From: a virus
Virus genome (UHGV): UHGV-0044052
Strand: one strand, 5' to 3'
DNA: 11,474 nt
The position numbers were made by a program, and so were the translations under genes. Positions 1 to 7,537 of this stretch are shown here, piece after piece (position 1 is the first letter of the stretch; each line of letters starts with the position of its first letter). The notes below the pieces were generated by a model, which saw only the letters and a list, made by a program, of their open reading frames with translations, searched no databases and was not told where the DNA came from.

Positions 1-413
1 GAGATAACCTTACACTGGTAACAACGGGCGCGGTGATGCGGCATTTACGTTGGGCAATGCCGGAGGCGTTGTTGATATCAGTACGTATGAATATACCTTG
101 CTGGATAATGGCAACCATAGCTGGAGTCTCGCAGAGAATCGCGCACAAATGCCCCCTTCAACCACGGATGTGCTGAATATGGCGGCAGCACAACCGCTGG
201 TATTTGATGCAGAACTGGACACCGTGCGTGAGCGTCTTGGTAGCGTAAAGGGCGGCGATGTGGAGTTCGGCAATTAACAGCCGCAACAACGTGACCACTG
301 ATGCAGGCGCTGGCTTTGAGCAAACATTGACGGGGCTAACGCTTGGTATCGACAGCCGTTTCTCCCGTGAAGAAAGCAGCACAACTCAGGCGGGTGTAGT
401 CTGGACGTTCTGA
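1..413 (+). pseudogene. 3' remnant of an outer-membrane beta-barrel (autotransporter-like) gene, reading frame broken
   Basis: Two consecutive plus-strand frames: one runs from the window edge to the stop at 275-277, the other from ~249 to the stop at 411-413 and ends ...QAGVVWTF with alternating hydrophobic/aromatic residues and a terminal Phe, typical of a beta-barrel C-terminal strand. Continuity needs a frameshift near 250-277. Family assignment is tentative. Confidence 0.3.
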
Positions 414-473: not shown

Positions 474-506
474 TAAAAAAACCAACCGCAATAGGTTGGT
501 TTTCTT
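474..506. terminator. Bidirectional rho-independent terminator
   Basis: Stem ACCAACC (481-487) / GGTTGGT (494-500) with a 6-nt loop, flanked by an A-run upstream (ataaaaaa) and a T-rich run downstream (ttttcttgggattttt), so it can terminate on either strand. Confidence 0.6.
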
Positions 507-916
507 GGGATTTTTGGTCCACGAGAGTAGTTTAATTGAGCGTGTAACTTCATGATTTAAAATAATGTATATGATTCAACTTTTAAACCGTATAACCAAA
601 CGTATAACTAAAATGATTTGCTGAAAAAATGCACAATTCAGGGTCGGATTTTCCCGGATGTTTAATTTATAAAAACGAAGCTGGTGGATGATCTGCGTGG
701 TGATTTCCACCATTCAGAGCAGGGGCGGTCATCATGCCCATGCCATAACAAAAACCCCATATTCGTGGTTTTTCTGTGTTGTGGCTATTCTGCCGTTGCC
801 GTGCTGGTGGATATTTCCGTTATGGGGATCACCATATCGGCATCATGCCCACCAGCCAGCGCAATTTTGCGCTTTGCTTTAAGTTCAGCAAGTTACCGCG
901 CCGGATTACGCCAATG

Positions 917-1101
917 GCTGTTTCCGAAAGAATCAACGGGTTAGGCCTTAATGGGCTGCGTGGTAATTATCAGCATCCAGAATATGACGGGTTATGTTTC
1001 CGACCTCCTCAATTTGAGGTTCCCGAAAATATCAACGGGTTAGGCTGGTTTCCCCGATGTTCGCCGCTGGCGAATTTCGAAAATATCAACCAGTTACCGC
1101 C
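917..1101 (+). repeat. Three imperfect ~25-bp direct repeats (core GAAA(G/A)(A/T)ATCAAC(G/C)(G/A)GTTA(G/C)(G/C)C)
   Basis: Copies at ~917-943 (ttccgaaagaatcaacgggttaggc), ~1019-1047 (tcccgaaaatatcaacgggttaggc) and ~1073-1101 (ttcgaaaatatcaaccagttaccgc). A CCTCAA-t-TTGAGG palindrome lies at ~1007-1019. No convincing ORF covers them. Confidence 0.6.
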
Positions 1102-1375
1102 GCAACCGCTCCGGCTTCTTCCAGTGGTATGTAATTTTCTCCGTTTCCCGATACAGTGCCACGCGGCGATTGTAGGCCAGCATTTCAAGAACGCGGATCC
1201 GTATGTTGCGCATATCCACATCATTAAGCTGGATACCATCACGGCGCATCACCTCAGCAACAACACGCGCATAATTTTCGGCTGTCACGCTGTCCGGCTG
1301 CGTGGCCTGTTCGTCAGTCTGCTGGCTGATTCCACCAGCACGGCGGATTAATCCCAGTATTTCGGCTTCTGTCAT
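1094..1375 (-). CDS. Hypothetical protein (93 aa) adjacent to cos A
   Basis: ORF of 93 codons with non-repetitive composition, ATG at 1375 with a weak SD. The overlapping plus-strand 191-aa ORF looks like an antisense artefact. No recognisable family. Confidence 0.45.
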   Translation of the reverse strand: MTEAEILGLIRRAGGISQQTDEQATQPDSVTAENYARVVAEVMRRDGIQLNDVDMRNIRIRVLEMLAYNRRVALYRETEKITYHWKKPERLRR

Positions 1376-1408
1376 TGTGCACCCATCGTTCTGATTGTCT
1401 GGTGTCGT

Positions 1409-1631
1409 CGGGTCCTTCCTGGAATTATGGACCCGTTACGGGGCGGCGACCTCGCGGTTTTTATCTGTTTATGAAAATTTTTCTGGAAAAAGCATGTCGG
1501 TACTTCTCGAACATAACTATTTGTTTTTAAATAGATACACAATAAAAAGAAACGACACGGTAATCATCTAAAATGGCGATTTATGACGCTTTCATGTCGT
1601 TTCTCAGTTTTGTTCAATAATTGCGCGTCTG
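1409..1631 (+). other. Lambda-type cos site (cos A): cosQ-like, cosN, cosB-like region with R-site-like motifs
   Basis: cgggtccttcctggaattatggacccgttacg | GGGCGGCGACCT (1441-1452) | cgcggtttttatctgtttatgaaaattttt closely matches the lambda cos junction as recalled. Downstream GAAACGACA (1548-1560) and TGTCGTTTCTC (1595-1605) resemble lambda cosB R2/R1 Nu1-binding sites. Confidence 0.8.
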
Positions 1632-2174: not shown

Positions 2175-2350
2175 TAATACACCAACTTAATTACTGCTTC
2201 AGGTTGGTGTATTGTTTGCATCTTTCCCTTTTCATTCATAAAGATAGAGCAAACAACAAAACCACCACCACCCCCCTGAAAAAGCTCATAAATAGCGAAA
2301 AACCGCGAGGTCGCCGCCCCGTAACGGGCCATAATTCCAGGAAGGACCCG
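2175..2350 (-). other. Second cos site (cos B), inverted relative to cos A, directly upstream of the TerS gene
   Basis: Minus strand reads cgggtccttcctggaattatggcccgttacg | GGGCGGCGACCT | cgcggtttttcgctatttatgagc. The cosN complement aggtcgccgccc is at 2308-2319. It forms a ~54-bp near-perfect inverted repeat with 1409-1462 (one indel). The cosB-equivalent region differs from cos A and contains a 9-bp-stem hairpin (tacaccaac / gttggtgta) just before the TerS start. Confidence 0.75.
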
Positions 2351-2805: not shown

Positions 2806-3093
2806 TTATCGGGCCAGCGGCTGAACGGATACGCCAGAACCCGCAAAGGCGGCGCATTTTTTCGCATCGGTGTCGACGCTCTCAGGCCAGTTAACGGCGG
2901 CAATATTGAATATCCCCGTCTTGTAACACTGTGCTGATTTCTGCTTTGACGTGTCCACGAGGTACGAAGTCAGATAAACAGCCTTGCCAGATTCCTGACC
3001 ATCCCACGGCTTAAACTCGCCATTGTCCGCCAGCATCAGCGGCAAAATGTACCAGCGTCGTGGATACCTGCTGACTGCCTGCAAATAACTCAA
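2806..3093 (-). CDS. Head decoration protein, lambda gpD-like (start uncertain)
   Basis: LPLMLADNGEFKPWDGQESGKAVYL...YKTGIFNIAAVNWPESVDTDAKKCAAFAGSGVSV aligns with lambda gpD [27 protein letters not shown]...[35 protein letters not shown]. The ORF as drawn starts at a TTG. The only SD-preceded ATG nearby (3109) is in another frame. Confidence 0.7.
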   Translation of the reverse strand: MSYLQAVSRYPRRWYILPLMLADNGEFKPWDGQESGKAVYLTSYLVDTSKQKSAQCYKTGIFNIAAVNWPESVDTDAKKCAAFAGSGVSVQPLAR

Positions 3094-3120
3094 TGTATGG
3101 AGTGTCCATAGAATCCCCCG

Positions 3121-4176
3121 TTAAGCAATTTTGACGGTAACAAATTTGCGAATATCTGCCGGAACCGGCTGCGGTGCGCTGTGCGTCTGCACGTACTCAA
3201 TCGCCGGATCGCCGTCCTCAATCCAGTTTTTCGGGTAGTACATGTTTTGCGTTGCGCCTGTTCTTACCGCTTCCTGATCCATAATCGCACCATAGGCCAC
3301 CAGCCCTTTGTTGTTGGTGTTGCCCAGGACCAGCAAATCAGGATCAAGGAAATATTTTTCTGTGCCGTCGCTGTCAGTGTATTTGCCGGAATAGACGATA
3401 AGGGCAATATCGCCCAGATAGCCTTTAAAGCTCACCACTTCGCCCAGGTTTTTACAGGCCAGCTCTGCGGCGGACTCTGAACCACGGGAAAGATCGTACA
3501 GCTCACGGAATTTTTTAAAGCTGCGTAACGTTCGCCATACCTCAACGCCCATAATCATGACGTTTGCGGGGCAACCAGCCTGATCGGCGTATAGTTCGAT
3601 ATCATAGATTGGATCGTGGGTTTCTTTGTCCTGCTCTGACCATTTTTTCCCGTCGGCCTGCTCTATGATGTTTTTTTCCGGTATCTTCCAGTCGATTTCA
3701 TAGCGCTCTATGCCTTCGCCCTCAATGATGTTTTTTCCGGTCGTTACCGCATTTACCGCCAGCCATTCCACGCGCGCTTTTATGGCGTTTATCTGGCGGC
3801 GCATATTGCCAGTAATCAGGCGCATACGGCGATAGGTAGGGTCGTTAAGCTGTGCCGGATCTTCTCCAGCCATGCGCATGATGGTTTTCGTTGGATCGAT
3901 TTCGTGCTTTGGCTTCATGTAGCCAGGTTTAATCGTGCTGGTTTCGTACCCTTTATCGCGCTGAACCTGGCTACCCACCATAGGCGAACAAAACGCCGAC
4001 ATGGTGACTTCTTCAATGTCCAGGGTATCCAGCATGATGTTTTGCGTGTTGAATGTCGCCACGTTCGGGAAAAACAGCGCGGTAAACAGCGGACTAAATT
4101 TAAATTCCGCAATATCCTCGCGATTCAGGTACGCGAAAAGCTGGTGTGTGTTAAGTGCCATTGCTTTGACTGCCAT
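3121..4176 (-). CDS. Major capsid protein, lambda gpE-like (HK97 fold)
   Basis: 351-aa product with conserved blocks shared with lambda gpE along its length: EFKFSPLFTALFF / KFKFDPLFLRLFF, KPGYMKPKHEIDP / TPGYVKPKHEVNP, DPTYRRMRLI / DPAYRRRRII, GDIALIVYSGKY / GDVAIVVYSGQY, YYPKNWIEDGDPA / RYPKNWVTTGDPA, SAP near the C-terminus. Confidence 0.9.
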   Translation of the reverse strand: MAVKAMALNTHQLFAYLNREDIAEFKFSPLFTALFFPNVATFNTQNIMLDTLDIEEVTMSAFCSPMVGSQVQRDKGYETSTIKPGYMKPKHEIDPTKTIMRMAGEDPAQLNDPTYRRMRLITGNMRRQINAIKARVEWLAVNAVTTGKNIIEGEGIERYEIDWKIPEKNIIEQADGKKWSEQDKETHDPIYDIELYADQAGCPANVMIMGVEVWRTLRSFKKFRELYDLSRGSESAAELACKNLGEVVSFKGYLGDIALIVYSGKYTDSDGTEKYFLDPDLLVLGNTNNKGLVAYGAIMDQEAVRTGATQNMYYPKNWIEDGDPAIEYVQTHSAPQPVPADIRKFVTVKIA

Positions 4177-5495: not shown

Positions 5496-5542
5496 ATTTA
5501 TTTTTACCCCCTCGTTTAAAAAGTTTTGAGTTGTGCCTCCCC

Positions 5543-5767
5543 TTGTCTACCTATCTACCTTAGTGGCCCTCATGCCAGTAATGGCGCGGCTTTCAGCGGG
5601 GTAGAGTGCTTTTATCCACTATCTACCCCGTGTCTACCTCCCTGTCTGATTCAGGTAAAATCAGGTAGAGAGGGTAGATAGTGGGTAGACAGTAAAAAAA
5701 GGCTATCTACCTAACTTAATGCACTGAATTAAATGTATTTTTCTTTACTCAGGTAGACAGGGTAGAC
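5543..5767. repeat. Iteron array, putative origin of replication
   Basis: Eleven copies of the 7-8-mer GGTAGA(C/T/G)(A) in both orientations: forward at ~5600, 5664, 5673, 5684, 5752, 5761; reverse (TCTACC) at ~5545, 5553, 5621, 5632, 5705. An AT-rich stretch lies at 5693-5750. Immediately downstream of the primase gene 3' end. Confidence 0.7.
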
Positions 5768-5782
5768 AGCCATTGCAACAAA

Positions 5783-7537
5783 TTATAAAAACGCGTCGCA
5801 ATCGTCTGTTGTTATTGCGTTAGTCTGCGTTACTCCTTTAACTTTCCGCGTAATATATTCATGTCCGTAAACTTTCGCGGCTGGCTTCATAGCCTTGCCA
5901 AAGTCATTTACGTTTAGCGGTTTGCTCCTGCCTGCGTACGCCATAAACGCCAGATAGACGCGGTAAAGGCTGTTTCTGGTCGTGTACTTCACTGAATCGC
6001 CACCGCCGCCCATCATCAGGCCGCGTGCTTCCTCCAGAAAATTCAGGAACTGGCAAAACTCAATAACCGGATCCGTCTGTTGCTTTATTGCCAGTGCTTC
6101 ATCACCGTCACGCTGTTCAATGAGTAAAGCCCGTGCCTTTTCAGGGTCGGCAAAGTTCGCCAGCAAGCGGCGGATAATGACAGGGATTTCAGCCGCGATC
6201 TTTTCCGGTAGCTCCCTGTCTTTTTCTGCCTCGCTTACGATGTTATCGAACCGGAATATCACCCGACGACGTGCCACACCTCCGGCCCGTTCGGTGAATA
6301 TCATCGGATTGTTATTGGTTGCCAGCACCACCGCCCTGATTACCGCCGTAAAACGCTTTTCATATTTCGGGTTAATTTCCACGGGGTCGCCGCCCGTGAT
6401 TTTCTTGATGCCCGTTCCTTCGCCTGTATATTTCGGCTGGTCTGCCAGGACGATAAGACGACTCCCGACAACCTGCGCACGCCCACCAGCATCATCAAGC
6501 GATGTCATTTCAGCGCTTACCGTGTTTTGTTTCCCTGCCAGAAGGCTGGCTATGTGTGTGAATGTACTTTTACCGCTCCCGCCGTCTCCGGTGGCCTCAA
6601 TAAACATCTGCCAGTCGTACCGGTTCGCCATAATCATGTACAGCGCGGCACATATACGCATCATCTTGCGCGGGTCTTTTCCGGCTGCGTGCTCAAGCCA
6701 TTTATGAAAGTTTGGCGCGTTATCGCGGATGTTCTCCCCTGGTGCTGGTGGCGTGTACTCAATGCCGTTGTGCGTGGTGATCCAGTTCTCCGGCGTGTGC
6801 GGGGAAAATTCCCCCGTTTTCAGGTCAAGCGCACCATTGGCGAACGGCAGCAAATCGCCGGACGGCTCGCCCATTGGTTCGGCAATAACTTTTAACGCTT
6901 CCACGGCGTTATTGATTACGCGCTTGCTGAAAGTGGCCCTGTGCTCTGAATAGATCGCCACCATTTCGCGGCTAAGTTCCATTGTGCTGACCGGACACCA
7001 TACCCCGCCGCGCCATACGTGAACGATTTCACTTTCAGGATGTACGCAAACGCCATCAAAGCGATCGGCAAGCAGCTGCGCGCGCTCACTGTCCGCCATC
7101 TGCGAAAGTTGCGCCTTTTGCTTTACCGGAAGCTCAATGACCAGACCATCAGAAAGATTCTGGCGCTCACGGGCCAGATATTCGCGCCAGTTCTCCACCT
7201 TCTGACCGTGCATACCATCAGGGTAAAAATTTGCATCCTGTACGCCTGCCGCCGCCAGCTTCTGACCAATCGCCTTTATCATTACTGGCGCAAGATATCC
7301 GGCCCTGAATATGCGCACGGATTTTCTGCCTTCCGGCACAATTTGCAGCTTATCCAGTTCTGATAACTGCTGCTCCCCAAGCCACACAGGAGGCTCATTA
7401 TCTCCGGCCATACGCGCATCATGTTCCTGCCATTGTTTCGCGTGTGCCCAGGCATCACTACCCGCAAAAATAATGACTTCTGTTCCTTTGTGTTTTATGC
7501 CGCGTGACTGCTGTTTTACGTTCGGTGCCAGTTTCAT
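5783..7537 (-). CDS. Replication primase/helicase (P4 alpha / D5-like, SF3 helicase domain)
   Basis: 584-aa product with Walker A GDGGSGKST in the central region and a C-terminal region plausibly DNA-binding. SD AGGGGT upstream. Start overlaps the preceding ORF stop (ATGA). Domain assignment is from motifs only. Confidence 0.8.
   Translation of the reverse strand: MKLAPNVKQQSRGIKHKGTEVIIFAGSDAWAHAKQWQEHDARMAGDNEPPVWLGEQQLSELDKLQIVPEGRKSVRIFRAGYLAPVMIKAIGQKLAAAGVQDANFYPDGMHGQKVENWREYLARERQNLSDGLVIELPVKQKAQLSQMADSERAQLLADRFDGVCVHPESEIVHVWRGGVWCPVSTMELSREMVAIYSEHRATFSKRVINNAVEALKVIAEPMGEPSGDLLPFANGALDLKTGEFSPHTPENWITTHNGIEYTPPAPGENIRDNAPNFHKWLEHAAGKDPRKMMRICAALYMIMANRYDWQMFIEATGDGGSGKSTFTHIASLLAGKQNTVSAEMTSLDDAGGRAQVVGSRLIVLADQPKYTGEGTGIKKITGGDPVEINPKYEKRFTAVIRAVVLATNNNPMIFTERAGGVARRRVIFRFDNIVSEAEKDRELPEKIAAEIPVIIRRLLANFADPEKARALLIEQRDGDEALAIKQQTDPVIEFCQFLNFLEEARGLMMGGGGDSVKYTTRNSLYRVYLAFMAYAGRSKPLNVNDFGKAMKPAAKVYGHEYITRKVKGVTQTNAITTDDCDAFL

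Follow-up and report, generated by a model that had tools for sequence, protein, structure and literature searches.

How phage-inducible chromosomal islands (PICIs) carried by Gram-negative bacteria perceive their helper phages is still an open question, and a small cluster of direct repeats near one end of such an island raises it at the level of DNA. The stretch analyzed here, from now on referred to as the window, comprises 11,474 nucleotides of UHGV virus genome UHGV-0044052 and is an EcCICFT073-type cos PICI of Escherichia coli Nissle 1917, integrated at tRNA-Pro. A sequence-only reading of the window had singled out three imperfect direct repeats of about 25 bp at positions 917-1101, with irregular spacing of about 100 and 55 bp and a CCTCAA-t-TTGAGG hairpin beside them, and had proposed that they could be protein-binding sites or part of a non-coding RNA. 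What these repeats are, where they come from and what they might do for the island are the questions addressed below. In the reading we favor, to which we would give about an even chance, sequence comparison suggests a non-coding array of composite docking units for integration host factor (IHF) and a Roi-type phage protein, situated at the integrase-distal island end and acting as a sensor or a decoy.

Anatomy of the repeat units

A repeat search recovered one family whose three members, all in direct orientation, lie at 920-946, at 1019-1045 with 89% identity to the first and at 1073-1099 with 63%. They are spaced by 99 and 54 bp, and the search thus bears out both the repeats and their irregular spacing. 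Their 22-nt core, TTYCGAAAATATCAACGGGTTA, has three matches at up to two mismatches and none in 200 shuffles. Each copy is the 3' part of a larger unit of about 50 bp consisting of a palindrome of 9-15 bp, a gap of 0-3 nt and a 22-bp box. Unit 1 (905-946, + strand) combines the palindrome GCCAaTGGC (910-918) with a box at 922-943, which contains the IHF consensus in the form AATCAACGGGTTA (931-943). In unit 2 (1002-1045, +), the palindrome is CCTCAAtTTGAGG (1007-1019), the box spans 1021-1042 and the IHF consensus reads TATCAACGGGTTA (1030-1042), while unit 3 (1056-1099, +) carries the palindrome TTCGCCgctGGCGAA (1060-1074), a box at 1075-1096 and the IHF consensus TATCAACCAGTTA (1084-1096). 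The hairpin noted previously is therefore real and belongs to unit 2, the other two units having palindromes of their own at the equivalent position. The unit 3 box ends in TTA (1094-1096), the complement of the TAA stop codon of p93, a 93-residue protein encoded by the last gene of the island operon (1094-1375, - strand) and assigned to phrog_1561, a family with no known function. Two further traces of the family are present on the + strand: a degenerate distal unit (858-895) with the palindrome AGCGCAATTTTGCGCT (858-873) and a decayed box, TTGCTTTAAGTTCAGCAAGTTA (874-895), in which the IHF consensus is no longer present, and a box relic, CCAGAATATGACGGGTTA (977-994), with a 1-nt deletion in its ATCAA core and an in-frame TAA. 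The distal unit also resembles a + strand intrinsic terminator.

The sequence WATCARNNNNTTR is the consensus recognized by IHF. It is matched perfectly exactly three times in the 11.5-kb window, with 0.9 matches expected, and all three fall in the three repeats. Information content calculated over 83 distinct units peaks at A8, A11-T12-C13-A14-R15 and G19-T20-T21-A22, with positions 16-18 variable; these peaks coincide with the letters of the IHF consensus, and its N positions are the ones that vary. From this agreement we infer that host IHF would bind and bend every box. In their perfect match and in the confinement of conservation to consensus positions, the boxes are like the canonical IHF sites H' of lambda attP and I1 of cos. 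Unlike these, however, they form an array in a single orientation, each with a flanking palindrome, and are placed neither between the arm and core sites of an integrase nor between the R sites of terminase.

Homology to one segment of phage roi genes

A blastn search with two units against 50,697 phage records returned matches only at nucleotides ~123-169 of lambdoid and Stx phage genes whose annotation is roi, anti-repressor or DNA-binding protein (loci L082-L084; E-values 2e-4 to 6e-4). The proteins encoded by the matched genes have an N-terminal Phage_pRha domain of the winged-helix type, to which Roi proper adds a C-terminal KilAC/ANT 'antirepressor' domain. Island units correspond to roi codons ~39-57 with the register unchanged, and the peptide encoded by this segment, G-V-I-R-x-P-Q-I-E-x-x-x-R-I-N-x-L-G, is also spelt by the + strand frame of the island. 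HK022, H-19B, CUS-3, JLK-2012, phi296, phiP27 and Stx2_EH2201 agree in having the palindrome, the spacing of 18 bp and an IHF consensus at gene nucleotide 153. The sequence of the palindrome differs between alleles, being CCTCAAATTGAGG in H-19B, CUS-3, phi296 and JLK-2012, CCTGCAtTGCAG in HK022, GCCAATGGC in phiP27, CGCCAATGGCG in Stx2_EH2201 and CCACAGaCTGTGG in Stx1_14744. The best-matching allele changes from one window unit to the next in step with the palindrome of the unit: unit 1 is closest in register to the roi allele of phiP27 (38/54), unit 2 to those of JLK-2012 (39/54) and H-19B (38/54) and unit 3 to that of Stx2_EH2201 (38/54). Between sister islands and roi genes, exact matches of 25, 38 and 44 nt occur.

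When whole Roi proteins were compared with all islands by tblastn, residues ~40-58 were recovered and no other part of the protein, so the islands hold just a sub-genic piece that has been multiplied. The units carry in-frame stops (TATCAACTAGTTA) and join out of frame, and Pfam scans detected no Rha domain in any window or island protein tested. The possibility, raised at the outset, that the repeats might prove to be part of a conserved coding gene is thus half right: they are homologous to a segment of phage roi, but what the island retains is a piece of only about 50 nt, present several times, out of frame and with in-frame stops. Decay of the reading frame has left the positions of the IHF consensus and the symmetry of the palindrome in place.

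Roi of HK022 reportedly binds a site inside its own gene, close to an IHF site, and IHF is said to stabilize this binding. The window units are homologous to the roi segment that would contain this site, with a palindrome 18 bp before WATCAR-N4-TTR in both, and several roi alleles are represented among window and island units. In contrast to HK022 roi, the island sites lie outside any roi gene, in non-coding DNA, in 1-6 copies and with different palindromes next to each other. The autoregulatory context, in which the site sits inside the gene of the binding protein, is missing, as neither the window nor the sister islands contain a roi or Rha gene. The type of site is already known from HK022, and what is new is its capture, multiplication and conservation in satellites. 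The titles of two earlier papers, on HK022 Roi (Clerget & Boccard 1996) and on rha of phi80 and P22 (Henthorn & Friedman 1995), likewise tie this protein family to IHF.

As a separate observation, Stx2_EH2201 (L084 1379-2086) and similar Stx phages carry a Rha-domain gene with the palindrome and the IHF site directly after cro. In lambda, the replication genes follow cro and ori is located inside gene O. Given an intragenic site and an IHF site that recall this arrangement, one might speculate that some Rha proteins are replication initiators.

A variable palindrome maintained as symmetry

While the IHF positions are fixed, the palindrome is kept as a symmetry, its sequence shifting by compensatory change. 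No fewer than nine different stems were distinguished: CCTCAAaTTGAGG, TCCCCCAaTGGGGGA, CCTGCAtTGCAGG, CAGCCgttGGCTG, TTCGCCgctGGCGAA, CGCAAttTTGCG, GCGCAttttTGCGC, TTCCACAGtCTGTGGAA and AGCTCAaaaaTGAGCT. Covariation was assessed on an ungapped alignment of 62 distinct units using a six-pair helix, 500 shuffles and slid controls. Pairing cells amounted to 78.8% compared with 60.6% in shuffles, double-sided changes to 73 compared with 26 and the covariation score to 0.47 compared with 0.18, none of the 500 shuffles reaching the real value in any of the three measures, and every slid control scored below the real helix position. Throughout, the center of the palindrome is found ~18 bp upstream of the A of ATCA.

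An oriented array conserved across related islands

The islands compared were taken from complete E. coli genomes (L002-L005), contigs encoding a p93 variant (L007-L016) and box-holding IMG/VR contigs (L017-L081). Of the 65 IMG/VR loci, about 55 are PICI-like with p93 beside the box and 8 are single chance matches. Overall, 41 non-redundant versions of the region could be distinguished, each with 1-6 boxes; all boxes have the orientation seen in the window, none is inverted, and none was found elsewhere in these islands. The array is positioned at or near the p93 stop codon, and in about three quarters of the 41 versions the last box ends exactly on it. The same box is consequently found where the sequence-only reading had proposed to look for it, at the integrase-distal end of related islands, downstream of p93, and the repeats are not a peculiarity of one element.

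The array is present in cos-type islands with either a Nu1-like terS or an rpp-sized gene and also in capsid-forming EcCIEDL933-type PICIs with HNH and P27-type terminases. p93 is the sole open reading frame (ORF) common to all 23 full-length islands compared. In EcCIEDL933, a mutant of 'hypothetical gene 1792', which might correspond to p93, transfers poorly. Accompanying integrases range down to 21-25% identity to that of the window, AlpA is often undetectable and primases are 40-100% identical, and the box is unchanged among islands at different attachment (att) sites (proL, phoQ side, clpS side). Box-to-box spacing varies from 43 to 563 bp without helical phasing. The p93 family forms 41 clusters at 50% identity, and a further contig scan for other taxa added one Shigella locus. 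Window positions 500-1500, which include the array, p93 and one cos copy, are matched in 1796 of 5426 complete E. coli genomes, about a third, and a roi gene of the matching type is found in 1071 of the 5426; encounters between the two should therefore be frequent.

A candidate sensor or decoy for a phage regulator

In the mechanism we propose, each unit of about 50 bp would descend from roi codons ~39-57 of lambdoid or Stx phages. Host IHF would bind and bend each box, and the adjacent palindrome would serve as the operator for a dimeric Roi-type protein supplied by an infecting or induced roi-positive phage, different palindromes serving different Roi alleles. Since no Rha-domain protein comes from the island itself, the regulator that the array reads out or titrates would have to be one made by the phage. 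One possible role is that of a sensor which, close to attR/attP and the int promoter and, in the excised circle, upstream of int, detects lytic growth of the phage; another is that of a decoy sink for the phage regulator. The more specific and more general version of this idea, in which E. coli PICIs of both the cos-type and the capsid-forming class carry a DNA 'antenna' of copied Roi/Rha operators from several alleles, combined with IHF sites, that signals phage lytic growth, for example through a remodeling of attR/attP or of the DNA upstream of int, or titrates the regulator, is put forward tentatively and may well be wrong. Among the assignments considered for the repeats, protein-binding sites remain the best-supported general reading, although the specific candidates previously named under it, partition sites and integrase/excisionase arm sites, fail as detailed below.

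Several observations weigh against the proposal of a sensor or decoy. The palindrome is a candidate operator, only putatively equated with a Roi site, and some palindromes, for example TCCCCCAaTGGGGGA, are seen in islands only, with no counterpart in the sampled phage genes. The IHF consensus is lost in some units. In phage roi, it overlaps the invariant residues I-N-x-L-G, and conservation of the IHF site inside the phage gene could thus stem from the protein. Arrays without p93 exist in three loci (L044, L075, L080), meaning that the link between array and p93 is not absolute, and the distance between array and att core varies from 300 to 600 bp, so no simple intasome role fits. Further, the proven helper HK106 has no roi gene and lambda, also a proven helper, is not known to carry one; Roi is therefore not required for induction or mobilization by these phages.

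Alternative explanations

The alternative that survives best, though we regard it as unlikely, is an architectural array that works through IHF only. DNA bending could shield the island end from transcription, give shape to the region upstream of int in the excised circle or work against silencing, and the palindromes would be inherited baggage. The perfect consensus in every good unit, with its matching information profile, is what such a function would leave behind, and the coexistence of the array with any type of integrase, primase or terminase as well as the existence of known helpers without roi are equally in its favor. It does not readily account for the palindrome, whose upkeep by compensatory change at a fixed distance of 18 bp in more than 60 distinct units would be difficult to understand unless some partner recognized it, nor does the lack of helical phasing among the boxes speak for a bending array.

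Somewhat less probable still, in our estimate, is that the units are functionless fossils, that is, roi fragments acquired by recombination with helpers and multiplied by slippage, with all their features inherited. The homology to a coding segment is clear, with exact runs of up to 44 nt, 64% of unit spacings are multiples of three, copy number is variable and some units are decayed, all of which would be expected of such relics. However, it is always the same piece of about 50 nt out of a gene of 720 nt, neither its orientation nor its place beside the p93 stop varies among 41 non-redundant islands, and the IHF positions and palindromic symmetry outlast the reading frame.

An RNA element appears improbable. 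It would consist of a hairpin and a single-stranded box, either in the 3' tail of the late operon (- strand) or in an antisense RNA (+ strand), and would act in stability, processing or protein binding. The stem covariation would suit it, but fits a DNA palindrome equally well. Mismatches in the + strand stem favor G.T over A.C by 10 to 2 distinct variants, a bias that shrinks to about 4-6 versus 1-2 independent events, and the similarity of the distal unit to a + strand terminator is set against hairpins that generally have no U tract behind them; for the same reason, intrinsic terminators were rejected as an explanation, with the exception of that decayed distal unit. There is no Rfam match, RNA folding gives weak z-scores (-1.9 and -1.5), the center of most stems is a single nucleotide, as is usual for DNA operators but not for RNA loops, and the box fits a DNA-binding consensus.

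Arm-type sites of attR/attP for the integrase or the excisionase (AlpA), as the sequence-only reading had also suggested, are very improbable even though direct repeats near an island end would be suitable for this role and IHF sites are typical of att arms. The box is identical next to integrases of only 21-25% identity and at the three att locations named above, it remains where AlpA is undetectable, and no copy is found in the int-proximal arm. Moreover, another repeat fits the role: a tandem of CGTATAACCAAA / CGTATAACTAAA (CGTATAACYAAA) at 589-612 (+), ~70 bp from the att core, which recurs between int and tRNA-Pro (L001 23347-23371) and likely represents the integrase arm-type sites. This repeat changes with integrase type, islands with other integrases having two copies of a different one, TTAACTACACC, at the equivalent position.

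A protein-coding repeat (peptide xxENINGLG), suggested by a + strand ORF at 776-1351 that stays open in one frame through all three copies and by gene callers that predict a 140-aa ORF at this place in other contigs, can be practically dismissed, since the frame, which runs antisense to p93 in codon alignment, is interrupted in L002-L005 by stops and frameshifts and in some boxes by TAG, has no Pfam or PHROG match, shows no third-position excess at variable sites and is left blank by RefSeq, in accordance with the initial impression of a region without convincing coding potential.

A number of other known repeat types were considered and rejected. A partition centromere (parC/parS), another earlier suggestion, does not apply, as annotation and Pfam scans contain no Par proteins and the element is integrative. 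A CRISPR-like array is contradicted by the irregular spacing and the lack of spacers. Integron attC agrees with two units at its core site, through GTTAGGC, but with neither the partner site nor the other type of unit. The likeness of CCTCAAA...GAGG to lambda ori iterons is superficial, and a decayed terL is indicated only by a 12-nt likeness to lambda gene A, on the wrong strand. Ori/crr iterons can be set aside because the PICI ori iterons, GGTAGAYAG at 5540-5770, are unrelated to the box. These iterons form two inverted sets on either side of an A+T-rich region immediately downstream of the primase gene, a layout and position that agree with the published PICI ori (PMC6092414).

Sites of the cosB or terminase R type share with the array the combination of repeats and an IHF site in a cos-packaged element, as in cosB of the lambda type (R3-I1-R2-R1) and the cosB found beside rpp in PICIs (PMC9026076). 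In contrast to these, the array is wrongly placed with respect to both cos copies and too distant, lying 345-520 bp from copy A, on its cosQ side, and ~1.2 kb from copy B, and it is also present with unrelated terminases, in capsid-forming PICIs with P27/HNH-type enzymes. The cos region has features of its own. Two inverted lambda-type cosQ-cosN copies of ~52 bp, at 1410-1460 (+) and 2298-2349 (-), flank terS, with GGGCGGCGACCT at 1441 (+) and 2308 (-). Copy A (window 1453-1630 side) is followed by a phage-21-like cosB with 89% identity to M81255, which has annotated IHF and terminase sites, and copy B (window 2175-2297 side) by the island's own sequence leading into terS. The slot of the 180-aa Nu1-like terS is occupied in sister islands by a 144-aa gene of RppA size. 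In one of 27 loci, that of E. coli JNE181771 at the same integration site (L004 4195-5145), the segment between the cos copies is inverted, with 88% identity in reverse and collinear flanks. The inversion could result from recombination between the repeats or from terminase cutting at both cos sites followed by religation, the latter being possible because the excised piece would have identical cohesive ends on either side.

Relation to known systems

In the published accounts consulted, EcCICFT073 and EcCIEDL933 are described with ori iterons, two cos sites, Rpp and a capsid module, and these repeats are not mentioned. A full-text literature search joining PICIs with Roi, Rha or antirepressor returned nothing relevant. 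The proposed sensor or decoy resembles the derepression of Stl by phage proteins in Staphylococcus aureus pathogenicity islands (SaPIs) and the Rpp-TerS hijack in EcCICFT073 (PMC6739421) in that a satellite exploits an early protein encoded by its helper. Those systems work by protein-protein contacts, whereas the proposed receptor would be DNA of the satellite in which the operator of the phage protein itself is copied. As clustered regulator sites away from the normal target, and hence as a possible sink, the array is also similar to E. coli datA (for DnaA) and the incA iterons of plasmid P1. These act on a regulator of the same replicon, while the array would act on that of a competing phage and combine several specificities.

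If the proposal is correct, satellites would have a DNA-based, and not protein-based, way to read or disarm a helper. The array would come from a phage regulator's own operator, retained among otherwise unrelated island modules, and would revive the Roi/Rha-IHF connection of the 1990s, which has been little studied. Even as an inert relic, it would still record repeated sequence traffic between roi genes and satellites.

The island and its remaining features

Window positions 500-1500 are identical to E. coli Nissle 1917, and the flanks are a yejO autotransporter pseudogene (window 1-413) on one side and tRNA-Pro/yejM on the other. Some difference from the Nissle RefSeq record exists outside 500-1500. 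The element is an integrative satellite of ~11 kb with every gene on the minus strand. Annotation together with Pfam and PHROG scans identified int, which runs past the right window end, an AlpA-like gene and a DUF4222 gene. Further minus-strand genes encode a primase-helicase (5783-7537), a single-stranded DNA-binding protein (SSB), a lambda-E-type major capsid protein (3121-4176), a gpD-type decoration protein, a scaffold-like protein (2380-2793) and the Nu1-type small terminase TerS (1632-2174). Capsid and decoration homologues and two lambda-like cos sites characterize the EcCICFT073 type (PMC6092414; PMC6739421). With regard to the decoration protein, the 111-aa gene of Nissle (window 2806-3141, -) is interrupted by a stop in the window translation at the mapped coordinates, and the ORF list contains only 2806-3093.

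The left end of the island is marked by an att core remnant, TGGTC-CACGAGAG (515-527, +), a copy of the tRNA-Pro 3' end. This places the array in an unannotated stretch of ~580 bp between the att end and the last gene, and the RefSeq annotation of the identical Nissle 1917 sequence likewise treats the repeat region as non-coding. The same non-coding island end contains a second conserved element, a long palindrome at 812-835, which is degenerate in the window (TATGGGGATCACCATA), reads CCCGATATGGGGATCCCCATATCGGG in L004 (~3210-3240) and has its core ATATGGGGATCCCCATA in L003 too.
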